A stretch of 64,000 nucleotides of DNA from Escherichia coli (GCF_003334335.1 NZ_QOWQ01000007.1); one strand, 5' to 3'. Numbered from the stretch's first letter, positions 9,085-23,104 are shown. Numbers and translations: made by a program. The notes: generated from the sequence alone by a model not told the origin.

Positions 9085-9124
9085 GCAGTGCTCTGGTAGC
9101 TGTAAAGCCAGGGGCGGTAGCGTG
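9085..9124 (+). promoter_or_regulatory. JUMPstart element with ops site (RfaH-dependent antitermination signal) upstream of the O-antigen operon
   Basis: ggcggtagcgtg (ops consensus GGCGGTAGnnTG) at 9113-9124 within the galF-wzx leader. Confidence 0.65.
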
Positions 9125-9346: not shown

Positions 9347-10714
9347 ATGCTATCAAAGGACCATAATTTGTCACATATAAATGACCCTAATAAGTTCTGG
9401 CTTAAGTTAATCCCCCCTCAAATTTTATCAAAAATATCCAATTATAATGGATTATTGGCTGCTATCAATAATAGTGGATGGCTTATCTTTGATAAATTAA
9501 TTCGACTGGCTCTTGGGTTTATTGTTAGTGCATGGATTGCGCGATATCTTGGGCCGAATGATTTTGGTATACTAGCATATGTTCTTGCATATTTGGCCTT
9601 TTTTCAAACTATATCTGTTTTAGGTATGGATGGAATCATTGTTAGGGATATAGCGAGAGATAAAGATAAAGCCGGTGAAGTATTAGGAACTGCATTTATA
9701 TTAAGATTAACAGTTGGTTTTATTTGTTGGATATTTTCAATCATTGGGATGATTATATTTAATGGAATCCATGATGAGGTTGTGTATATTACGGCAATTA
9801 CAGGAGGTCTATTATTATTCCAATCCGTCGATACAGTAGATCTTTGGTTTCAGAGTCAAAGTGAAAGCCGGAGGACTGTTATTGCGAAATTGACAGCTTA
9901 CTTATTATCTAGCAGTGTAAAAATAATATTGATATTAAATGAAGCACCATTAATAGCATTCGCAACAATAATGTTATTTGAAACTGTGGTTTCAGCTGTA
10001 GCATTAGTTATTGCTTATAGAAAATATCCTTGTTATCAATCTTGGGTATTCTTAAAACAACGAGCATATAAAATTATTAATGAGTCCTGGCCCTTTATCT
10101 TAAGTGGCCTTTCAATCTCAATATATATGAGAATAGATCAAATCATGATCAAGGAGTTTATGGGGGATTCTGAACTGGGAATATATGCTGCAGTACTACC
10201 TTTTGCAACACTATGGTCGTTTATTCCAATGACACTATCAATAAGCTTGGCACCTTTTGTTGCAAAAACAAAACAAAAAGGGGAAAGAGAATATTGGACC
10301 TGTTTATATACAATCTTTAGAGTGTTTGCAATTATTGCTTGGTTTGTGGCAATACCTATATCACTAATGTCGAATCATATCGTTTCAATACTTTTAGGTG
10401 CTAAATATGAAGCTGGATCTGTGGTTTTATCTATAATGGCATTTGTAAATATTTTTATAAACATGGGCATAGCACAAAGTTTATGGATATTAAATGAAGG
10501 TAAATCTAAAGTTAGCTTGTATAAAACGATGATAGGTGCAGTTGTATGTGTTGCTGCTAACCTTATTTTGATTCCGAAATATGGGCTTATAGGGGCTTCT
10601 GTAAGCGCGTTATTGGCACAATTTACATCATGCATACTAAGCAATTTTCTCATATGCAAAAAAATATTTTATCTACAAGTTAGAAGTTTGTTTTTTATCA
10701 AGATGAAATTTTGA
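9347..10714 (+). CDS. wzx: O-antigen flippase (Wzx, MOP superfamily)
   Basis: 455 aa multi-pass hydrophobic protein; AT-rich coding sequence; first gene after JUMPstart; exact start not verified. Confidence 0.8.
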   Translation: MLSKDHNLSHINDPNKFWLKLIPPQILSKISNYNGLLAAINNSGWLIFDKLIRLALGFIVSAWIARYLGPNDFGILAYVLAYLAFFQTISVLGMDGIIVRDIARDKDKAGEVLGTAFILRLTVGFICWIFSIIGMIIFNGIHDEVVYITAITGGLLLFQSVDTVDLWFQSQSESRRTVIAKLTAYLLSSSVKIILILNEAPLIAFATIMLFETVVSAVALVIAYRKYPCYQSWVFLKQRAYKIINESWPFILSGLSISIYMRIDQIMIKEFMGDSELGIYAAVLPFATLWSFIPMTLSISLAPFVAKTKQKGEREYWTCLYTIFRVFAIIAWFVAIPISLMSNHIVSILLGAKYEAGSVVLSIMAFVNIFINMGIAQSLWILNEGKSKVSLYKTMIGAVVCVAANLILIPKYGLIGASVSALLAQFTSCILSNFLICKKIFYLQVRSLFFIKMKF

Positions 10715-10802
10715 TTAGTGAATAAGATATAGCGTTGCATATTTGTAATGAAATATAAATTAGATTAATCAGTAATATTGTTTTCAAAATAGGGATAATG
10801 CT

Positions 10803-12023
10803 TTGAATATAGTACTTTCGCTACTACTGCTTCTGATAGGGGGGATATCGATTATATGTGCAATAAATAAAAAGCGACCTATGCTTTTAATTCTTGCAGC
10901 CTTCTTTACAGTATATTTGGCGCTACGCCCCGTATTGCTTTCATTGGGCTTATATAATATTTATGCTTACCTCAACCCATCTGTTATCGATTATGACGAA
11001 AGCGCGCTTACGCATTGTATTATATTCACCCTAATATCATATGTATTGTTATTATTTACTTATCATAAAACAAAAAAAAGAATAAAGATTGATAAATCAA
11101 GCAATAATGACGATCAGAGAGAAAGTAATAGTAATTATAATTTTGTTGCATTTATAATTGCTCTATTACTAATCTTTTCAGTTATATTGATACCAATGTA
11201 TGTTTGTTTTGTTTATTTACTGCTGTTGATCTTGTATTATATTATCAAGTATAAAGGAGATGGGCGTAAGCTTAATGTTGTATTATCGGCTCTTTATTAT
11301 ATCTTATTAATTTTATTGCTTTTTTTTATTTCAGATGATCGTCGTGATTGGTTAGTGGCTATAGGTGTTCCTTTATATATATACATATTTGTATACTTAA
11401 AAAGCCTTATTAAGATTTTAATACCCTCAATAGTTTGCCTGCTACTTCTGGTATATATAAGTGTAGCATTCAGGAGCGGAGGTGATATATTTGATTATGA
11501 TGCTGTTAAAAATAGAGCTGAATCAGTAAGTGCAACTCTTACAGTACTTGAAGTAGAAACTGATTTTAGTATTGTATTTGATGATTATTTACTTTTATTT
11601 GACAAAAGATACTCAAGTATTGATTTTTTATACGGGGTGACAATTTTAAAACCTGTCATCTCGATTATCCCAAGAAGTATATTTCCCGACAAGCCAGAAA
11701 CATCTAGTCGACTTTTCCCAAAATATTTTAATAAACAGTTTTATAATGTTGGTGGTAGTGAACCTGTAACATTATTTGGGGAACTATATTGGAATTTTTC
11801 GTATTTGTCTCTCATTGTTTTTATGTTGTTGGGTAATATTATTGCTCTGATTGATAATACATATTTACATAATAGATCTAATTACTTATTCTCAGCATTG
11901 GTATTATCATTAAGCTTAACTGGTTTCCATCTTCTAAGAGGGCCGATTGATTCTTTTTGTTATCTGTATTTATGGTTGATATTGGCTTATCAATTATTGA
12001 ATGTCGTTAAAAAAATTAAATAG
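10803..12023 (+). CDS. wzy: Putative O-antigen polymerase (Wzy)
   Basis: 406 aa, extremely hydrophobic and AT-rich, many predicted TM segments; apparent TTG start at 10803 with an AGGGA Shine-Dalgarno ~6 nt upstream; position next to wzx. Confidence 0.7.
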   Translation: MNIVLSLLLLLIGGISIICAINKKRPMLLILAAFFTVYLALRPVLLSLGLYNIYAYLNPSVIDYDESALTHCIIFTLISYVLLLFTYHKTKKRIKIDKSSNNDDQRESNSNYNFVAFIIALLLIFSVILIPMYVCFVYLLLLILYYIIKYKGDGRKLNVVLSALYYILLILLLFFISDDRRDWLVAIGVPLYIYIFVYLKSLIKILIPSIVCLLLLVYISVAFRSGGDIFDYDAVKNRAESVSATLTVLEVETDFSIVFDDYLLLFDKRYSSIDFLYGVTILKPVISIIPRSIFPDKPETSSRLFPKYFNKQFYNVGGSEPVTLFGELYWNFSYLSLIVFMLLGNIIALIDNTYLHNRSNYLFSALVLSLSLTGFHLLRGPIDSFCYLYLWLILAYQLLNVVKKIK

Positions 12024-12032
12024 GATATTAAG

Positions 12033-12956
12033 ATGAGTAGCAATCTTGCACCAATATGTTTATTTGTGTATAACAGATATGAGCATACAGTACGAACTGT
12101 TGAGGCTTTGAAAAAAAACACACTTGCATCAAAGTCTGAACTTTATATATTTAGTGATGCGTCCAAAGATTCAAAATCTGTAGTTCAGGTACAAAAAGTT
12201 AGAGAGTATGTTGATACAATAAAAGGTTTTAAGAAAATAACAATAATTAAAGCACCAAAAAACATGGGGTTGGCGGAATCAATTATTAGCGGGGTGTCAT
12301 CTGTTATAAAAAAATATGGGCGTGTAATTGTATTTGAAGATGATCTAGTCTCAAGTCCACTGACTCTAGAATACCTCAATATAATGTTAGATAACTATAA
12401 GAATCAAGAAGACGTTATGTCGGTTACTAGCTACTCGTATCCTGAAAAAACATTAGAAATAGATAAATTTTACAATTTCGATAATTATTTTACGGGGAGA
12501 CCATGTTCATGGGGATGGGCAACATGGCAAGATAGGTGGGAGTCTATTCAATGGGAGGGTGATATATATAGAGATTATTTAAAAAACGAAAGCATGCAGA
12601 AGCAATTCATGAAATATTCAGGTGTCGATATTGACCGAATGCTTAAAAAACAATTGGCAGGGCATATTGATTCGTGGGCAGTAAGATTTGTCTTTAATTG
12701 TTTTTTACAGAAAAAATTAGCTTCATACCCGACTAAATCGTATATTACAAATATCGGTTCTGATGGGACAGGTACGCATCGGGGAGTTAATGAAGAATAT
12801 ATAGTGAATTACTCCTTAAATATTAATCTGCCAACAAATTTGCTAAATGATCTATATGTAGATAAGGATATTTGGAAGCAGTTTAATTTATTTGTTAGGA
12901 AAAAATATTTTTTTCGGAGGGCTTTACTGTTTATAAGAAGGAAATTTTATGCTTAA
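12033..12956 (+). CDS. Putative glycosyltransferase, family not recognised
   Basis: 307 aa ORF in the O-antigen cluster; no GT11 fucosyltransferase motif recognised; function inferred from context only. Confidence 0.6.
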   Translation: MSSNLAPICLFVYNRYEHTVRTVEALKKNTLASKSELYIFSDASKDSKSVVQVQKVREYVDTIKGFKKITIIKAPKNMGLAESIISGVSSVIKKYGRVIVFEDDLVSSPLTLEYLNIMLDNYKNQEDVMSVTSYSYPEKTLEIDKFYNFDNYFTGRPCSWGWATWQDRWESIQWEGDIYRDYLKNESMQKQFMKYSGVDIDRMLKKQLAGHIDSWAVRFVFNCFLQKKLASYPTKSYITNIGSDGTGTHRGVNEEYIVNYSLNINLPTNLLNDLYVDKDIWKQFNLFVRKKYFFRRALLFIRRKFYA

Positions 12957-14061
12957 AAAACTATTAAAGAAGTTTTTCATTCGTTATGCGTATAAATCAT
13001 TTAACAAAAGCGGTTCGAAAAAGGCATTATTATCATTTATCGTCCACCCCTATTTTTTCAAAACATTTAAGCATCCGAATATAATTGAGTTAGAATGTAT
13101 AGTGTCTATTTTAGAAAAGATGGGTTACTGTATTACGGTTGTAGATTATCGAAGAAAAAAAATTCATAAAAAATACGATTTAGTGTTGGGGTTTGGGGAT
13201 TGCTTTGAATATGCTATAAATCATAACTATGGCACTAAGTTTATACTTTATTCAACAGGTTTTCCTGCTTTTATTCAAAACCAGAATGCTATCGAAGCAT
13301 TTTTCCGTTTTAAACAAATGTACACTGAAAAACAGAACATTGTATCTGATAAGTATATACGTTTAACTGAAAATGTTTGGCCCAGACAATTAATAGAAAG
13401 TGATGCTATTATCACTATAGGTAATGATTATGTTAAATCATTATATGAACGATTTCACGATAAGATATATTGTATTCCATCTACAGCTTTTAAAATAATA
13501 ACTCAGCAATCTACAACAATAAATTCTATAAAAAAAAATTCATTTTTGTGGTTTGGAGGGAAAGGGTGTATTCACAAGGGACTGGATTTATGTATAGCAG
13601 CAATAGCTGGCACAGAGTATAAGTTATACATAGCAGGTCCTATAGACGATGAAATTTGTATTTTTAATGACATATTGAGTACTTATCCAGATAATTTTGA
13701 GTATCTTGGTTTTCTTTCTGTTAATACTGAAGAATTTTGCGAGGTAGTTGAGCATATCCCATTTTGTATATTGCCGTCATGTAGTGAAGCAATGGCTACC
13801 TCCATTGTGACGCTGGCTAGTAATTTCGGAACGATTCCGTTAATTACAAAGGAATGTGGTTTTGACTTTGATAATGAAATCATAGAAATAAATTCATTAA
13901 CTATTCAATCTGTTAAACAAGCATTATTTAAAGCGTCATTGTTGACTGAAGATGAAATTTATATTAGAAAATCTTCTATCAAAAGAAAATACAGTTCTTA
14001 TCATAGCAATGAATCGTTTTACAGTAAATTTGAATATTCTCTAAAAGAAATACTTAGATAG
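12949..14061 (+). CDS. Putative glycosyltransferase (GT4-like C-terminal half)
   Basis: 370 aa; C-terminal region carries a GT-B-like ...LPSCSEAMATSIVTLASNFGTIPLI... motif; overlaps the upstream ORF by 8 nt. Confidence 0.6.
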   Translation: MLKKLLKKFFIRYAYKSFNKSGSKKALLSFIVHPYFFKTFKHPNIIELECIVSILEKMGYCITVVDYRRKKIHKKYDLVLGFGDCFEYAINHNYGTKFILYSTGFPAFIQNQNAIEAFFRFKQMYTEKQNIVSDKYIRLTENVWPRQLIESDAIITIGNDYVKSLYERFHDKIYCIPSTAFKIITQQSTTINSIKKNSFLWFGGKGCIHKGLDLCIAAIAGTEYKLYIAGPIDDEICIFNDILSTYPDNFEYLGFLSVNTEEFCEVVEHIPFCILPSCSEAMATSIVTLASNFGTIPLITKECGFDFDNEIIEINSLTIQSVKQALFKASLLTEDEIYIRKSSIKRKYSSYHSNESFYSKFEYSLKEILR

Positions 14062-14071
14062 GTAATTAACA

Positions 14072-15082
14072 GTGATCATCTATGATGGAATTATAGAAAA
14101 ATTGCAGTCTGGCGGTGGTGTTACCGTAGTTTTTAATGAAATTGTCTCGAGGTTAACAGAATATAAATATATTAGCTATGACACTTGTTCTAAAATATCG
14201 ATAGCTAGAAACAATATGATAAAACCATCAAGATTTTTGGAACGATATAGAGATTGTGTTATTCCTGATTACAATCCTCAAGATAAGGCTATATTTCATT
14301 CGACTTATTATAGATTACCTCATCATTTGAACATACCAGTCATAACAACAGTTCATGATTTTACCTATGAAAAGTTCGTTGATGGTCCTGCGAAGAAGAT
14401 TCATTCATGGCAAAAAAATAGAGCAATACGTCGGAGTGATATAATCATCTGTGTATCACAAAATACCGCAAATGACTTGATGAGATATTGTCCGGTAAAT
14501 TCCAGTCGTATTCGTGTAATATATAATGGAGTTTCAGATGAATATTATCCTTTACCCGAAATTAATAATGTTGATTCTCAAAAAGTATTGTTTGTAGGGG
14601 CAAGAGGTGGTTATAAAAACTTTGAATTAGCAATAGATGCAGTTTCCTCTGTAGCCGGATTAGAGTTACATATAGTGGGGGGGGGGGATTTAACAACACA
14701 AGAAAAAATAAAATTAGAAAGTAAATTGTCGGGTAGATATTTTTGGTTGGGTAAGCTTACAAATCAAGAGCTAAATATTGCATATAATAGTAGCTATGCG
14801 TTGCTTTATCCATCAAGTTATGAAGGTTTTGGAATCCCAATTATCGAGGCAATGCGTGCTGGTTGTCCAGTTATTGCTGCGAATTCGTCTTCAATACCTG
14901 AAGTTGCTGGCGATGCGGCAATATTAGTGGATGATTTGAATATATCTACTTTTCGCGAAGCCCTATTAAGCATACCAGCATGTCGCAATGAATTGATCTC
15001 CGCAGGTTTCGCACAGTCTAGAAAATTTTCTTGGGAGCGCTGTTTCCAGGAAACGTTATTAGCTTATAATGAATTGCTTTAA
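14072..15082 (+). CDS. Glycosyltransferase family 4
   Basis: 336 aa; [33 protein letters not shown] is a classic GT4 signature; apparent GTG start; contains a G11 homopolymer at 14677-14687. Confidence 0.8.
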
Positions 15083-15099
15083 TGTATAGTGAGATAAAA

Positions 15100-16224
15100 A
15101 TGAGCAAAAAAATCGCATTCCTCACAGGTGTTACTGGTCAAGATGGCTCTTATCTGGCCGAATTTCTTTTGGCTAAAGGTTATGAAGTTCACGGGATTAA
15201 ACGTCGCGCATCTTCTTTTAATACAGAGCGAGTTGATCATATTTATCAAGCACCTCATCATAAAGACCCTAATTTCTTTCTTCATTATGGTGACTTAACA
15301 GATTCATCAAACCTGATACGTCTAATCAAAGAAATCCAACCAAACGAAGTTTATAACCTTGGCGCTCAATCTCATGTAGCGGTTTCATTCGAATCACCTG
15401 AATATACTGCTGACGTTGATGCGATGGGGACTTTACGTCTGTTGGAGGCGATTCGTATTTGTGGGCTAGAGAAAAAAACACGTTTCTATCAGGCATCTAC
15501 TTCTGAACTCTTCGGCTTAGTTCAGGAAATCCCGCAGCGAGAAACAACACCATTCTACCCTCGTTCGCCTTATGCTGTTGCGAAGATGTATGCATACTGG
15601 ATTACTGTAAACTATCGTGAATCCTATGGAATGTACGCCTGTAACGGTATTCTCTTCAACCATGAATCCCCGCGTCGTGGTGAAACATTCGTAACACGTA
15701 AAATCACTCGTGCTATTGCAAATATTTCGCAGGGAATCGAAAAATGTCTCTATCTTGGCAATATGGACTCACTGCGTGACTGGGGACATGCAAAAGATTA
15801 CGTGCGTATGCAGTGGATGATGTTGCAGCAAGATCACCCAGAAGATTTTGTTATTGCAACAGGCAAACAAATTTCCGTACGTGAATTTGTTCGTATGTCC
15901 GCTAAAGAAGTAGGTCTGGAGTTAGAATTCTCCGGACAAGGTGTTGATGAAATAGCAACTGTTGTCAATAAAACATCTGACTGTGCTATTGGTGTAAGTA
16001 TTGGGGATGTGATCGTTCGTGTTGATCCGCGTTATTTTCGTCCTGCAGAAGTTGAAACTCTTCTTGGTGATCCAGCAAAAGCGAAAAAAGTATTGGGTTG
16101 GGAACCAGAGATTACAGTTGAAGAGATGTGTGCAGAAATGGTTGCCAGTGATCTGGCGAAAGCAAAACAGCATGCACTTCTGAAAAGCCATGGTTACGAT
16201 GTTGCAGTTTCTCTGGAGCGGTAA
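15100..16224 (+). CDS. gmd: GDP-mannose 4,6-dehydratase
   Basis: [36 protein letters not shown]... strongly Gmd-like; ATG at 15100. Confidence 0.93.
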
Positions 16225-16227
16225 GGT

Positions 16228-17193
16228 ATGACAAAAAAACGTATCTACGTTGCTGGTCACCGAGGTATGGTTGGCTCTGCTATTTGCCGTCAATTATCAC
16301 TGCGTGATGATATCGAATTAGTGGTCAAAACACACAAAGAACTCGATCTAACCGTACAGAAGGATGTTGATGCATTTTTTGAGCAAGAGAAAATTGATCA
16401 GGTTTATCTTGCTGCGGCTAAAGTTGGTGGCATTTATGCCAACAATACATTTCCGGCAGAATTCATCTATCAGAATCTCATGATTGAGAGTAATATTATT
16501 CATTCAGCTCACAAGGCCGGAATTCAAAAATTACTTTTTTTAGGCTCAAGCTGTATTTATCCTAAATTCGCAGAGCAGCCGATGAACGAGTCTGCGCTTT
16601 TAACGGGCATACTTGAGCCAACTAATGAGCCATACGCAATTGCTAAAATTGCGGGCATAAAATTATGTGAATCTTATAACCGTCAATATGGCCGTGATTA
16701 TCGCAGTGTAATGCCTACTAATCTTTATGGCATAAATGATAATTTCCACCCTGAAAACTCTCATGTTATTCCGGCACTCATGCGTAGATTCCATGAGGCA
16801 AAAGAGAGTGGAGCACCAGAAGTTATTGTCTGGGGAACCGGAACACCGATGCGTGAGTTTTTATATGTTGATGATATGGCTGCCGCATCTGTTCATGTAA
16901 TGGAACTTGACGAAGCAATTTATCAACAAAATACACAGCCTATGTTATCTCATATTAATGTTGGTACGGGTGTAGATTGTTCTATACGTGAAATGGCTGA
17001 AACAATGGCCTCTGTGGTGGGTTATCAAGGTAAAATTGTTTTTGATGTTACTAAACCTGATGGCACTCCGCGTAAACTTATGGACGTTACCCGGCTCAAA
17101 AACTTGGGCTGGCAATATCGCTATAATTTACATGAAGGCTTATCATTAACATATAAATGGTTTATTGAGAATATTAATTCTTTTCGGGGATAG
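16228..17193 (+). CDS. fcl: GDP-L-fucose synthase (GDP-4-keto-6-deoxymannose 3,5-epimerase/4-reductase)
   Basis: 321 aa; [19 protein letters not shown]... N-terminus typical of Fcl/WcaG; follows gmd. Confidence 0.92.
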
Positions 17194-17195
17194 TT

Positions 17196-17657
17196 ATGAA
17201 CAAGAGATTGGAACGTGAGCTATTTAAAACAATAGTTGAGCATACTCCTCTAATCTCGATTGATCTCATAATTAGAAACGATAAAGGAGAGGCGCTGCTG
17301 GGGCAGCGCCTGAATCGCCCAGCACAAAATTATTGGTTTGTGCCAGGAGGGCGAATTTATAAGGATGAGTCATTCGAGGTTGCATTTAAACGGATAACAT
17401 TTGAAGAGTTGGGCGTTAAAATTAGTCTTAATGACGCCTTATTTCTTGGGGTGTATGAACATTTTTACAATGATAATTTTTCTGAAGCAGAATTTTCTAC
17501 ACACTATGTAGTGCATGGATATGAAATCCAACTTAATCCTCAGCAACTTCACCTACCAACGGTCCAGCATAATTCCTACAAGTGGTTTGATGTAGTAACG
17601 TTGCTTAATAGCACTATAGTTCATCAATATACCAAAAATTATTTTATACCAAGGTAA
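17196..17657 (+). CDS. gmm: GDP-mannose mannosyl hydrolase (Nudix)
   Basis: 153 aa Nudix-like protein between fcl and manC, the canonical gmm position. Confidence 0.85.
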   Translation: MNKRLERELFKTIVEHTPLISIDLIIRNDKGEALLGQRLNRPAQNYWFVPGGRIYKDESFEVAFKRITFEELGVKISLNDALFLGVYEHFYNDNFSEAEFSTHYVVHGYEIQLNPQQLHLPTVQHNSYKWFDVVTLLNSTIVHQYTKNYFIPR

Positions 17658-17662
17658 TACAT

Positions 17663-19069
17663 ATGCTACTTCCCGTTGTCATGGCCGGTGGTTCAGGTAC
17701 CAGATTATGGCCTCTTTCACGTACACTTTATCCGAAACAATTTCTGTCTTTAAATAGTCGTTTAACCATGTTGCAAGAGACATTGCGGCGGCTTGACAAG
17801 ATCGAACATAAACCCGCTTTGGTCATTTGTAACGAATCACATCGCTTTATCGTTGCTGAACAATTGCGTAAAGAGGGTTTAAAGCATAGTGGTATTTTGC
17901 TTGAGCCTGTGGGTCGTAATACTGCGCCTGCTGTAGCACTCGCAGCACTTCAGGCTATGGTAACTGGAGATGATCCTATTCTGTTGGTTCTTGCTGCTGA
18001 TCATGAAATCCAGAATGAGGATAATTTCATTGATGCAGTTCTTGCAGCCAAGAATTTTGCAGAGCAGGGTAAGCTTGTTACGTTTGGTATTGTTCCAACA
18101 TCCCCAGAGACTGGCTATGGTTACATTAAGTTAGGTGAATATCTGGATGGAAAAGGTTACAAAGTTGCGGCTTTTGTTGAAAAACCAGAGCTTCACGTAG
18201 CTCAGCGGTATATATCAGATGGCGGTTATCTTTGGAATAGTGGGATGTTTATGTTCAGAGCATCTGTATTTATCGATGAACTGAAAAAATTCCGACCAGA
18301 TATTTTAGCCAGTTGCCAAAGCTCTCTGTCCTCTTCGACACAAGATTTAGATTTTATCCGTCTGGATAACTCTTCATTTTCTTGCTGTCCTGAAGAGTCG
18401 ATTGATTATGCCGTTATGGAAAAAACAGCCGAAGCTGTCGTCGTTCCATTAAATGCGCAATGGAGTGATGTTGGGTCATGGTCTGCATTGTGGGAAATAA
18501 GTTCAAAAGACCAAAGCGGCAATGCCATTCGTGGTGATGTATTGGTTGAAGATGCTACAGATAGTTATCTTTATTCGCAGCATAGACTTATTGGTGCCGT
18601 GGGCGTAAAGGATTTGGTTGTTGTTGAAACGAAAGATGCCGTATTAGTTGCTCATAAAGACAAAGTTCAGCAAGTTAAAAATATTGTCGCTCAACTTAAA
18701 AAAAATAATCGAACAGAATATTTACAGCATCGGGAAATTTTTCGGCCTTGGGGCAGTCATGATACTATAGCTGAAGGGCCGCGCTTTCAAGTGAAACATG
18801 TGATTGTATTACCTGGTCACATTACCGCTAAGCAGATTCATTACCATCGTACTGAGCATTGGATTGTTGTCTCGGGGACAGCTAAAGTTCATCTTGAAGA
18901 TAAGACTTATCTTGTTTCTGAAAATGAATCAACATACATACCTGTTGGTGTTCCACATGCCATTGAAAATCCTGGCAAGATCCCACTCGAAATAATTGAG
19001 GTTAGATCAGGAGTCTACCTTGAAGAGGATGATGTTATAAGAGTTCCTTCTTCTGGAGTAGGATACTAA
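17663..19069 (+). CDS. manC: Mannose-1-phosphate guanylyltransferase
   Basis: 468 aa; N-terminal nucleotidyltransferase motif (VVMAGGSGTRLWPLSR) and C-terminal cupin region. Confidence 0.93.
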   Translation: MLLPVVMAGGSGTRLWPLSRTLYPKQFLSLNSRLTMLQETLRRLDKIEHKPALVICNESHRFIVAEQLRKEGLKHSGILLEPVGRNTAPAVALAALQAMVTGDDPILLVLAADHEIQNEDNFIDAVLAAKNFAEQGKLVTFGIVPTSPETGYGYIKLGEYLDGKGYKVAAFVEKPELHVAQRYISDGGYLWNSGMFMFRASVFIDELKKFRPDILASCQSSLSSSTQDLDFIRLDNSSFSCCPEESIDYAVMEKTAEAVVVPLNAQWSDVGSWSALWEISSKDQSGNAIRGDVLVEDATDSYLYSQHRLIGAVGVKDLVVVETKDAVLVAHKDKVQQVKNIVAQLKKNNRTEYLQHREIFRPWGSHDTIAEGPRFQVKHVIVLPGHITAKQIHYHRTEHWIVVSGTAKVHLEDKTYLVSENESTYIPVGVPHAIENPGKIPLEIIEVRSGVYLEEDDVIRVPSSGVGY

Positions 19070-19815
19070 TGCGAATTTCTATTATCACAGCTACTTATAA
19101 TAGTGAAAAAACTCTCCTTGATACATTACTTTCTCTAGAAAAGCAAACGCATCCAGATATTGAATATATAGTTGTAGATGGAGCATCGAAAGATAATACA
19201 ATTAAGCTGATTAAGAGTAATTGTACAAAAGTTTCAAAAATCATTTGCGAACCCGATAAGGGCATTTATGATGCTCTGAATAAAGGTATTCAAGCAGCTT
19301 CGGGTGATGTTATTGGTTTTTTACATTCTGATGACTTATTTGCTTATGATGATGCTATTGCAGATATAGCAAAAACATTTGAAAGTACAGGATGTGATGC
19401 TATTTATGGCGATTTGGAGTACGTTGCCCAAAATGATACGACTAAACGTATTAGATTATGGAAAAGTGGTTCATTTAGTCGTTTCAAGATGAAAGTGGGT
19501 TGGATGCCGCCACACCCATCATTTTATATGAAACGCGAATGTTATAGTCAGTTTGGTAGTTTTTCTTTAGATTATCGAATATCTGCTGATTATGACTCAT
19601 TATTACGATATATTTTAAAACAACGTATTTCGATAGCATATTTACCAAAAGTCTTAGTGAAGATGCGTGTTGGTGGAATTAGCAATCGTTCAGTATCTTC
19701 AATGGCCAAGAAGTCAATGGAAGACATTCGTATTATGAAACAGAATGGTATTATCTGGCCACTTGCTTTAGCGTATAAAAATATATCCAAACTTCCTCAA
19801 TTTATTAAAAAGTAA
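19069..19815 (+). CDS. Glycosyltransferase family 2
   Basis: 248 aa; MRISIITATYNSEKTLLDTLLSLEKQTHPDIEYIVVDGASKDNT is a typical GT2 N-terminus with DxD-type region. Confidence 0.8.
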   Translation: MRISIITATYNSEKTLLDTLLSLEKQTHPDIEYIVVDGASKDNTIKLIKSNCTKVSKIICEPDKGIYDALNKGIQAASGDVIGFLHSDDLFAYDDAIADIAKTFESTGCDAIYGDLEYVAQNDTTKRIRLWKSGSFSRFKMKVGWMPPHPSFYMKRECYSQFGSFSLDYRISADYDSLLRYILKQRISIAYLPKVLVKMRVGGISNRSVSSMAKKSMEDIRIMKQNGIIWPLALAYKNISKLPQFIKK

Positions 19816-19820
19816 TCATC

Positions 19821-21245
19821 ATGTTAAATGTTAAAAAAATCATTAACGATAGTAATATTGCGTTCGGTACTAGTGGTGCTCGCGGTTTAGTGATCGATTT
19901 TTCCCATGATGTTTGTGCTGCGTTCACTCATGCGTTTCTTTCTGTTATTGATGACAAATACAATTTTAGTAAAGTTGCCTTAGCCATTGATAACCGCCCA
20001 AGTAGTTACGAAATTGCTCAGGCATGCGCGTATGCTATAAAACAACATGGATTCGAGGTTGAATATCATGGTGTAATTCCGACTCCTGCATTAGCTCATT
20101 ATTCGATGCAGAAAAACATTCCCTGCATAATGGTCACAGGGAGTCATATCCCTTTTGATCGTAATGGCTTAAAATTCTACAGACCTGATGGTGAAATCAC
20201 TAAAGAGGATGAGCTCGCAATTATAAATAGTGAGTATACATTTTCGCCTGTAGGTGAATTACCTCATCTTGAAACAAGCACTCAAGGTGCAGACTACTAC
20301 CTCGAACGTTATGTTTCTCTTTTTAATCCCGAGATTTTAAAGGGGAAAAGAATAGGGGTATATGAACATTCTAGTGCGGGACGCGATTTATATGCTCCTC
20401 TTTTTAATCAAATGGGTGCAGAGGTCATTTCCCTCGGTAGGAGTGATGAGTTCGTTCCGATTGATACGGAAGCAGTAAGCGATGAAGATCGTATACTTGC
20501 AAGAGAGTGGTCTAAAAAATATAATCTTGATGCTATTTTCTCAACAGATGGCGATGGTGATCGTCCTTTAGTTGCCGATGAAAATGGTGAATGGTTAAGA
20601 GGCGATATTCTGGGACTACTTACTGCTATTGAACTTAATATCAAGGCGTTGGCTATTCCAGTGAGTTGTAATACAGCAATTGAAGAGTCTAATAAATTTG
20701 CAAGTATACAACGAACGAAAATAGGTTCTCCTTATGTAATTGCAGCATTTGCAGATCTTGCTAAGCAATTTGATTCAGTCGCTGGTTTTGAAGCTAATGG
20801 TGGTTTTCTCCTTGCCTCCGATTTACAAATTAATGGCAAGGAATTAAAATCGTTACCTACACGAGATGCTGTGTTACCAGCATTAATGCTCTTAATAGCT
20901 TCTCGCAATAGTACTATTTCTCAACTGATTAATAATCTTCCTCAGCGATTCACTTGGTCAGATAGAGTTAAAAACCTCCCTTCAGATTCAAGTCAACAAA
21001 TTATAAAAAATGCCATATCGTCACCCAATAATTTCTTTAATAGTTTAGGTTATGAATCATTATCCTGTTCCGCTATTGATGAAACGGATGGTGCAAGATT
21101 TACTTTAAATAATGGTGATATTATACATCTCCGTCCTTCCGGTAATGCTCCAGAACTCCGTTGTTATGCTGAGGCCAGTGATGAAAATCAGGCTAAGCAA
21201 TATGTTACGAATGTGCTGGGAAATATTACCTCTTTGATTTCTTGA
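19821..21245 (+). CDS. manB: Phosphomannomutase / alpha-D-phosphohexomutase of the O-antigen cluster
   Basis: 474 aa; phosphohexomutase active-site-like TGSHIP motif; sequence clearly differs from the cpsG paralogue at the window start. Confidence 0.75.
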   Translation: MLNVKKIINDSNIAFGTSGARGLVIDFSHDVCAAFTHAFLSVIDDKYNFSKVALAIDNRPSSYEIAQACAYAIKQHGFEVEYHGVIPTPALAHYSMQKNIPCIMVTGSHIPFDRNGLKFYRPDGEITKEDELAIINSEYTFSPVGELPHLETSTQGADYYLERYVSLFNPEILKGKRIGVYEHSSAGRDLYAPLFNQMGAEVISLGRSDEFVPIDTEAVSDEDRILAREWSKKYNLDAIFSTDGDGDRPLVADENGEWLRGDILGLLTAIELNIKALAIPVSCNTAIEESNKFASIQRTKIGSPYVIAAFADLAKQFDSVAGFEANGGFLLASDLQINGKELKSLPTRDAVLPALMLLIASRNSTISQLINNLPQRFTWSDRVKNLPSDSSQQIIKNAISSPNNFFNSLGYESLSCSAIDETDGARFTLNNGDIIHLRPSGNAPELRCYAEASDENQAKQYVTNVLGNITSLIS

Positions 21246-22906: not shown

Positions 22907-23104
22907 TATACAAAGCGGCAGGTTATGGCCTTTTTTTATAATTTATGGTTAAAAAAGCGATATAATACAGAGCCGCACAGCAGGATCGCTGTCTTGACAG
23001 TTCAACCGCATCAGCGTTAAAAATCCCGCAGTACGCAGTAGATGAAGTTGTGGTGGTGGACTAATGACCACTCTAAATGTTTTAACCGGAAGAAGTCAGA
23101 GCTA

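Follow-up and report, generated by a model that had tools for sequence, protein, structure and literature searches.

Is an unbroken run of eleven G residues within a glycosyltransferase gene of Escherichia coli a switch for the O-antigen, or only a place where the gene is prone to break? The question was raised by a stretch of E. coli DNA of 64,000 nucleotides (GCF_003334335.1, NZ_QOWQ01000007.1; the whole stretch is called the window, and positions are counted from its first letter), in which the run (G11) lies in a gene for a family 4 glycosyltransferase (GT4) belonging to an O-antigen cluster. An earlier note on this DNA had proposed the run as a potential slipped-strand phase-variation switch and had allowed that it could be a homopolymer sequencing artefact. 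The tract is a real slipped-strand hotspot that yields, in nature, heritable alleles expected to turn the O-antigen off. We consider it likely that G11 is a genuine inherited feature of a rare O-antigen cluster, produced by an accident of codon choice and acting as the main slipped-strand frameshift hotspot, from which out-of-frame (OFF) alleles of the in-frame (ON) gene arise. Nothing shows that the tract was shaped for switching.

Position and Reading Frame of the G11 Tract

The features of the gene on which the argument depends are the following:

14072-15082, plus strand: GT4-family glycosyltransferase gene, 336 amino acids, GTG start (open reading frame; RefSeq "glycosyltransferase family 4 protein", WP_087895188.1)
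14675-14689, plus strand: codons GTG GGG GGG GGG GAT, encoding V202-G203-G204-G205-D206, with the Gly-Gly-Gly invariant in the family
14677-14687, plus strand: G11 homopolymeric tract, a slipped-strand hotspot; G11 in three complete genomes and in contig L100, with G10, G9, and G8 variants in public data
14691-14693, plus strand: TAA that ends the in silico products of a -1 slip, G10 (206 amino acids) or G13 (207 amino acids)
14722-14724, plus strand: TAA that ends the in silico products of G12 (+1 slip; 217 amino acids) and G9 (-2 slip; 216 amino acids)
14822-14848, plus strand: EX7E motif (E251-x7-E259) in the C-terminal donor-binding domain, located 3' of the tract and inside Glycos_transf_1 (residues 166-301)

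The plus strand reads ...CATATAGT GGGGGGGGGGG ATTTAAC..., with eleven consecutive G at 14677-14687 (C11 on the minus strand). The window sequence and the translation of the open reading frame agreed with the earlier note on every point of this description, namely the position of the run, its in-frame (ON) state and the peptide HIVGGGDL, and the surrounding coding sequence was AT-rich as described, the GC content of the gene being 35%. G11 is a strong outlier among the homopolymers of the window, where 24 runs of G5 and four of G6 were counted, none of G7 to G10 and a single G11, the longest homopolymer of any other base being A9. Outside the tract, GGG was used for only one of the 17 other glycine codons of the GT4 gene. 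Under the codon preferences of the cluster, the peptide V-G-G-G-D would be spelled as G11 with a probability of about 7e-4 to 3e-3. An uninterrupted long repeat within an open reading frame, which is a first mark of a contingency locus, was hence found in codons 202-206.

The assignment of the enzyme to GT4, a family of retaining enzymes with the GT-B fold, was based on the presence of both an N-terminal Glyco_transf_4 domain (Pfam PF13439, residues 78-157, 2.4e-16) and a C-terminal Glycos_transf_1 domain (PF00534, residues 166-301, 1.2e-23), together with the EX7E motif, whose residues E251 and E259 were invariant among 28 homologues. The sequence matches in the PDB were GT4 enzymes, the closest solved relatives being MshA-like enzymes, GlgM and WbnH of E. 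coli O86. The gene stands near gmd-fcl-gmm-manC-manB and some sources name its homologues mannosyltransferase; judging only by the names given to these homologues, the product is probably an alpha-mannosyltransferase.

The possibility that G11 itself was an error of the window assembly was also considered. G11 was present in all three complete genomes that carry the cluster, from three countries and including an allele diverging by 1.3%, and in the metagenome contig L100, the only contig matched in a scan of metagenome DNA with a flank pattern that tolerated 7-15 intervening bases. Furthermore, NCBI, ENA, and Logan together contained at least 177 contigs with the full-length protein of 336 amino acids or close alleles of it. 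Since independent assemblies agree on G11, an artefactual origin of the tract was ruled out, and the caution of the earlier note on this point can be set aside.

The products of tract lengths from G8 to G14 were then computed in silico from the GT4 open reading frame. G11 gave 336 amino acids, G10 206, G9 216, G12 217, and G13 207, and the frame was kept in G8 (335 amino acids) and G14 (337 amino acids). After a -1 change, translation would halt at codon 207, one codon past the tract, and in no out-of-frame product would the EX7E motif or the C-terminal portion of the donor-binding domain be retained. Hence a second mark of a contingency locus, a repeat number that sets a full-length or a truncated product, was found in silico. 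The truncation expected by the earlier note about 200 codons in, after a change of plus or minus one base, was confirmed by these predictions, and the exact lengths were corrected to 206 amino acids for the loss of one base and 217 for the gain of one.

The same predictions bear on a different use of the tract, as a recoding site at which transcriptional slippage or ribosomal frameshifting would give an alternative product or a partial expression of out-of-frame alleles. The codons GGG GGG GGG let tRNA-Gly re-pair in any frame, and slippage of RNA polymerase on homopolymers is known, mainly on A/T runs of nine or more. Nevertheless, a full-length and family-typical enzyme is already encoded in the zero frame with G11, both shifted frames stop within 1-12 codons without any alternative domain, the homologues do without the G run, and a stimulatory structure was not evident, although no search was aimed at one. 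A programmed recoding site was ruled out because zero-frame G11 gives the full product and the shifted frames stop so soon, and recoding of any kind at this tract is extremely improbable.

Tract Lengths in Public Assemblies

The predicted products of G8 to G14 were looked up as exact sequences among about 15 billion proteins. The G10 product of 206 amino acids was found for both alleles of the gene, the G9 product of 216 amino acids was found on two contigs, and the in-frame G8 product of 335 amino acids was found as well. No match was obtained in this look-up for the products of G12 (217 amino acids), G13 (207 amino acids) or G14 (337 amino acids). About 92% of the contigs were ON. The comparison of the same gene in related isolates, which the earlier note had suggested, thus uncovered truncating G10 and G9 alleles in metagenome assemblies and in several lineages independent of each other. 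The single fixed length that the same note had named as evidence against a switch was contradicted by the G10, G9, and G8 variants of the public assemblies, and the existence of G11, G10, G9, and G8 alleles represents a third mark of a contingency locus, the polymorphism of repeat number among related strains.

The variant contigs were aligned to the window, and a matrix of single-nucleotide polymorphisms (SNPs) over 9 kb resolved three backgrounds, which diverge by up to ~2.4% across the cluster. Background A comprised the window, L001, and L005; background B comprised L003, L015, and a sub-lineage in which L004 and L006 were equal and L014 was one SNP off; and background C comprised L002 and L010. 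In background A, the contigs L005 and L007 differed from the window only by G10 and by an A6 tract that is also present in the G11 genome L001. In background C, G10 was the only private indel of L010 and L012. In the sub-lineage of background B, L004, L006, L008, and L009 carried G10 and L014 carried G9. The remaining variant, L015 (GCA_045618425.1, background B), carried G8 on a contig of 4.76 Mb, with no other private indel and with the cluster otherwise intact. Its allele encodes V-G-G-D, one invariant glycine being lost, and it could be either a further contraction that restored the frame or a long-read homopolymer miscall. Leaving out the noisy contigs L011 and L013, the alignment and the SNP matrix gave at least four independent contractions in the three backgrounds. 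Three of the G10 contigs (L005, L008, and L010) were metagenome assemblies, so that the OFF state was assembled without a culture step. Within lineages, the OFF alleles were inherited clonally.

An alternative explanation is that the tract is a neutral codon accident without meaningful hypermutability, and that the shorter public tracts are homopolymer miscalls of sequencing or assembly. All the variants are contractions, which is the usual direction of homopolymer errors; L011 and L013 hold between two and seven further shortened homopolymers each, and were discounted as noise and dropped as genuine slippage variants; and the G8 genome, being a single contig of 4.76 Mb, likely derives from long reads. 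A chance of ~1e-3 for the spelling is not negligible either, given thousands of GT4 genes with the motif (5,396 matches), one homologue of which has G9. Nevertheless, the G tract was the only private indel over 3-20 kb in L005, L007, L010, and L012, and the A9 and A8 runs were unaltered wherever a locus was long enough to span them, namely in L005, L007, and L010. Within lineages, several samples sequenced apart from each other agreed on the tract state, as for G10, which argues against random read error. In addition, G10 and G9 co-segregated with structural lesions in the sub-lineage of background B (the identical deletion junction of L004 and L009, and the IS1 ends described below), and most of the ~177 G11 contigs came from the same kinds of pipelines as the variants. 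The idea that all shorter tracts are artefacts was ruled out for most of them by the clean contigs in which the tract is the sole private indel, by the recurrence and by the co-segregation with structural lesions; the explanation by accident and miscall as a whole is improbable.

As a control, the A9 tract of the neighboring GT1 gene showed a single variant lineage against 103 full-length contigs. In this gene (12949-14061; A9 at 13530-13538), the A8 allele leads to a product of 215 amino acids, which was found on four contigs, all of them from the sub-lineage with IS1 and G10; the look-up gave no match for the A10 product.

Lesions Accompanying the Contracted Tract

The members of the sub-lineage of background B (L004; L006, with L008 and L009; and L014) were 0-1 SNP apart over 9 kb and had a contracted tract in common. 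They carried three distinct upstream lesions, consisting of one deletion and two insertions of the insertion sequence IS1. L004 and L009 combined G10 with the same deletion of 4,043 bp (9562-13604, from wzx to GT1), whose junction lies at 9533/9534 in L004 and at 467/468 in L009 (window 9561/13605) and shows no microhomology. This deletion leaves the beginning of wzx fused to the last part of GT1, with the loss of wzy, the first glycosyltransferase gene, and most of GT1. The contigs L006 (1-29) and L008 (1-54) end in an IS1 terminus whose junction is at window 12506, in the first glycosyltransferase gene, and both carry G10 together with the change from A9 to A8 at 13530. The contig L014 (1-23), with G9, also ends in an IS1 terminus, the junction being at window ~13683, in GT1. 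The identity of these termini as IS1 was confirmed, and contig ends within the terminal repeat at two places point to two different IS1 insertions.

By parsimony, the contraction of the tract would have preceded the upstream lesions. Two readings fit the succession: relaxed selection and decay after the first hit, or positive selection for suppressors. A late glycosyltransferase block in a pathway that depends on undecaprenyl phosphate (Und-P) traps the carrier, impairs growth and selects for mutations that shut off earlier steps (review, PMC12826051; Shigella flexneri, PMC11218652), and this literature on late-step blocks supports the second reading. The occurrence of OFF alleles with extra lesions in one sub-lineage looks like decay or suppressor selection, not like free switching. 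An OFF state that is neither free nor clean in this pathway argues against a locus shaped as a switch, unlike the contingency genes of lipooligosaccharide (LOS) synthesis in Haemophilus and Neisseria.

The cluster was also found inactivated by another route. Three metagenome contigs (L103-L105) carried a 5-bp tandem duplication (AGAGA) at 12201, which frameshifts the first glycosyltransferase gene (12033-12956), and G11 was intact in L103 and L104, the two that reach it. L104 also showed a C-to-A substitution just past the tract.

Origin of the Tract

The three glycines G203, G204, and G205 were invariant in the 28 homologues, which share 54-98% identity with the GT4 protein. The nearest relatives outside E. 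coli, from Aeromonas, Edwardsiella, Citrobacter amalonaticus, and Plesiomonas, were 64-70% identical. In the four closest homologues, which were fetched individually, the codons were GTT GGT GGT GGA, GTT GGC GGT GGA or GTT GGT GGT GGT, with a G run of 2. Among the matches listed, 84 homologue loci, mostly of distant homologues, were compared at the motif, whose glycine codons were GGA (48), GGT (45), GGC (41), and GGG (27); the G run was of 6 or less in 83 of these 84 loci. The exception was Yersinia nurmii CIP110231T (L016), 57% identical, with a G9 in GTG GTG GGG GGG GGC. As a tract, therefore, the run was kept in all the E. coli alleles seen and was absent from the four nearest homologues of other genera. 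Since these have interrupted codons, a tract ancestral to the enzyme family was ruled out, and G11 appears to be a derived feature of the E. coli cluster, made by synonymous choices over a constrained motif. Interrupted codons in homologues had been named by the earlier note as the other half of the evidence that would speak against a switch, and this is what the nearest homologues, all of other genera, showed.

The conservation of the tract within E. coli could suggest that G11 is an evolved contingency locus, kept by second-order selection because a rapid and reversible ON/OFF change of the O-antigen would allow escape from O-specific phages or antibody. In favor of this view, the tract is uninterrupted across three backgrounds that diverge by up to ~2.4% over the cluster, and GGG is otherwise avoided in the GT4 gene (1 of the 17 glycine codons outside the tract). 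Nevertheless, only four synonymous sites could break the tract, and at a divergence of ~1-2% between the backgrounds about 0.2 substitutions were expected at them, as estimated from the SNP matrix. Retention is thus expected by chance and is no proof of selection; reading selection from it would be unsupportable. The interrupted codons of the nearest homologues of other genera also stand against an evolved switch.

Comparison With Known Switching Loci

Repeats placed in the open reading frame of a glycosyltransferase, which make a surface glycan dependent on the frame, are classical in lic and lgtC of Haemophilus, in lgtA, lgtC, and lgtG of Neisseria and in the poly-G tracts of wlaN and cgtA of Campylobacter. 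Such LOS and lipopolysaccharide (LPS) loci are many per genome, have tracts of widely differing length and occur commonly in either state, ON or OFF, whereas E. coli has here one isolated tract. Several of those genomes lack mismatch repair or tolerate a weak one, unlike the repair-proficient E. coli. In addition, classical LOS glycans are built on the lipid A-core, so that an OFF state traps no undecaprenyl phosphate, whereas the E. coli GT4 protein belongs to a Wzx/Wzy pathway. No description of a poly-G tract in an O-antigen cluster of E. coli was found in the literature searched, which was limited to one library.

The closest parallel in design was pgtA, the pilin galactosyltransferase gene of N. 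gonorrhoeae, which is ON with 11 G and prematurely terminated with 10 or 12 G (PMC2193922). Both are glycosyltransferase genes with an intragenic poly-G, ON with G11 and truncated with G10 or G12, as predicted for the E. coli GT4 gene. In both, the alleles or homologues without the tract have an interrupted G-rich sequence, which in pgtA is constitutive. When the pgtA G11 was placed on a plasmid in E. coli XL1-Blue, variants in both directions arose at ~1e-2, and all four of the ON-to-OFF variants sequenced were G10 (PMC2193922). The differences are that pgtA is a Neisseria gene whose target is an O-glycan of a protein, whereas the E. coli enzyme would act on an O-antigen repeat unit (O-unit) linked to undecaprenyl diphosphate; that the gonococcal tract is present or absent between strains, with ON and OFF both common, whereas all the E. 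coli alleles have the tract and ~92% of the contigs are ON; and that switching was measured for pgtA, whereas the E. coli gene is known here from sequence alone.

A parallel in distribution is provided by wbeL (A8) and manA (A9) of Vibrio cholerae O1 (PMC3441752). These, too, are O-antigen genes of a gammaproteobacterium; nearly all strains keep the coding homopolymer in frame, and a contraction by one base is seen in rare natural isolates. In V. cholerae, the contraction leads to loss or alteration of the O-antigen and to phage escape at a fitness cost, and at one of the two loci reversion proved difficult to demonstrate (PMC3441752). The tracts differ, however, being poly-A of 8-9 in V. cholerae and poly-G of 11 in E. 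coli, and so do the enzymes, which belong to precursor or tetronate pathways in the former and are represented by a repeat-unit glycosyltransferase in the latter. Moreover, phenotype, phage selection, and manA reversion were experimental there, whereas the E. coli locus was read from its DNA only.

Within E. coli, the group 3 capsule gene kpsC of K96 offers a further likeness, as a surface-polysaccharide gene inactivated by slippage in a coding homopolymer (A7 to A6), with the same variant in natural genomes and with insertion sequences as a parallel route of inactivation (PMC13410964). It differs from the GT4 gene in its far shorter tract, A7, for which the event was called "rare slipped-strand mispairing", in affecting capsule and not O-antigen, and in that reversion was shown experimentally (PMC13410964).

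Hotspot or Switch

The mechanism proposed is a simple one. During replication, the nascent or the template strand would misalign within the G run. The loss of one G (G10) would bring a TAA into frame one codon past the tract and end the protein at residue 206, and this stop would remove the C-terminal donor-binding part, including the EX7E motif. The O-unit would then be incomplete and the O-antigen lost or truncated. Slippage of +1 could restore G11. OFF cells would pay for dead-end undecaprenyl-linked intermediates, which would explain the differing upstream knock-outs of the G10 sub-lineage. Indel rates in E. coli climb exponentially with run length, and G:C runs of 8 bp, shorter than G11, are already outliers in K-12 (PMC8510543). 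The variants probably arise by chromosomal slippage at a rate far above that of base substitution, mostly by contraction, and the locus behaves like a contingency locus kept ON by purifying selection.

Several points weigh against this reading. We infer both the role of the enzyme and the rough or O-antigen-negative phenotype of G10. Mismatch-repair-proficient E. coli repairs one-base loops efficiently, and the chromosomal rate could be far below the figure obtained for pgtA on a plasmid. Only contractions were seen among the variants, and long homopolymers are apt to come out too short from Illumina and nanopore pipelines alike; L011 and L013 were clearly noisy and the G8 of L015 may be a long-read artefact. 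Contig counts do not equal numbers of independent isolates, as Logan, ENA, and NCBI may share runs, and the counts differed between look-ups. Finally, inactivation elsewhere with G11 intact, by the duplication at 12201, means that the tract is not the sole hotspot.

The evolved contingency locus introduced above was weighed on the same evidence. OFF variants exist in nature, metagenome assemblies included; a conserved ON tract with a few OFF isolates is the pattern reported for wbeL and manA of V. cholerae O1 (PMC3441752); and the identical design of G11 ON and G10 OFF is a phase switch in gonococcal pgtA, which slips both ways in E. coli (PMC2193922). On the other side, no expansion and no documented OFF-to-ON reversal were found in the assemblies compared, ~92% of the contigs were ON, and the OFF alleles were clonal and accompanied in one sub-lineage by irreversible lesions (the deletion and IS1). 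A late glycosyltransferase block is also costly in a Wzx/Wzy pathway and makes a poor switch site, unlike the LOS genes of Haemophilus and Neisseria. On balance, an evolved contingency locus is doubtful.

A more specific form of the proposal is unlikely, namely a selectively maintained reversible O-antigen switch in a repeat-unit glycosyltransferase of the Wzx/Wzy pathway, working at ~1e-4 to 1e-2 per generation. With such a switch, OFF cells would survive for a short time only, or else by means of upstream suppressors, owing to the trapping of undecaprenyl phosphate, and G8 would be a frame-restoring escape. The original proposal of a phase-variation switch was consequently borne out in part: the hotspot and the truncating variants stood, whereas the presence of contractions only, the ~92% of contigs that are ON, the stability of OFF within lineages and the absence of any documented reversal did not favor a switch. 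No OFF-to-ON reversal could be inferred from the public assemblies compared. The phase-variation claim is plausible but unproven, and we hold it with little confidence. The reading that we prefer is still that of an inherited codon accident that acts as a frameshift hotspot.

The O-Antigen Cluster

The GT4 gene is part of the following operon:

9368-21245, plus strand: Wzx/Wzy-type O-antigen operon holding the GT4 gene (RefSeq annotation of L001-L003)

The order of the genes is wzx, wzy, GT, GT1, GT4, gmd, fcl, gmm, manC, GT2, manB, and the GT4 gene is the third glycosyltransferase gene of the galF-gnd cluster in all three matching complete genomes. The elements of a Wzx/Wzy cluster, which are the galF-gnd site, wzx, wzy, glycosyltransferase genes, and sugar-nucleotide genes, were all present in the RefSeq annotation, although the NCBIfam matches to flippase and repeat-unit polymerase families were weak and below the curated cut-offs. 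The placement of the tract in a GT4 gene of an O-antigen cluster, already recognized in the earlier note, was thus supported by the annotation and by the Pfam domains alike. The cluster is rare, occurring in 3 of 5,426 complete E. coli genomes. The GT4 gene was 100% identical to that of the window in LR-29-1 (L001, Ecuador) and in 38M23CPO015 (Canada), and 98.7% identical, with 13 substitutions, in Z1323HEC0462 (South Korea). Neither the E. coli O-antigen review nor the family libraries yielded an O serogroup for the cluster. An ops element (GGCGGTAG) was located at 9113, in the galF-wzx intergenic region upstream of the operon, which we take to imply RfaH-dependent antitermination of the operon; polar effects of a premature stop within the GT4 gene would thereby be limited.

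Two further polymorphisms were observed in and beside the cluster. At the 3' end of wzy (10803-12023), the run at 12009-12015 was A7 in the window, L002, and L003, giving a Wzy of 406 amino acids, and A6 in LR-29-1, L005, and L007, where the last residues of Wzy are altered and the protein, of 410 amino acids, overlaps the next gene. Over 25 kb, LR-29-1 and the window differed by no indel other than this A7/A6 change. In the gnd-ugd intergenic region (23020-23033), the 7-mer CGCAGTA was tandemly duplicated in the window and in LR-29-1, and was present as a single copy in L002, L003, L004, L006, L010, L014, and L015.

Implications

The O-antigen is the main serotyping marker of E. coli, a phage receptor and a target of antibodies, and its loss is usually put down to insertion sequences, deletions or random point mutations. 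A coding G11 predicts which gene is the first to fail in this O-group. Its slippage could account for O-untypeable or rough isolates and for pseudogene calls in the group, and homopolymer calls in the GT4 gene need care. Should the switch prove reversible, and fast enough to be useful, the tract would be a rare case of slipped-strand phase variation of the E. coli O-antigen. It would then represent a contingency locus in the style of Neisseria or Campylobacter in a mismatch-repair-proficient enterobacterium, and a natural experiment in what dead-end O-units cost the cell. The G10 sub-lineage, with its three different upstream knock-outs, provides a natural data set on suppressor selection under the model of Und-P sequestration.

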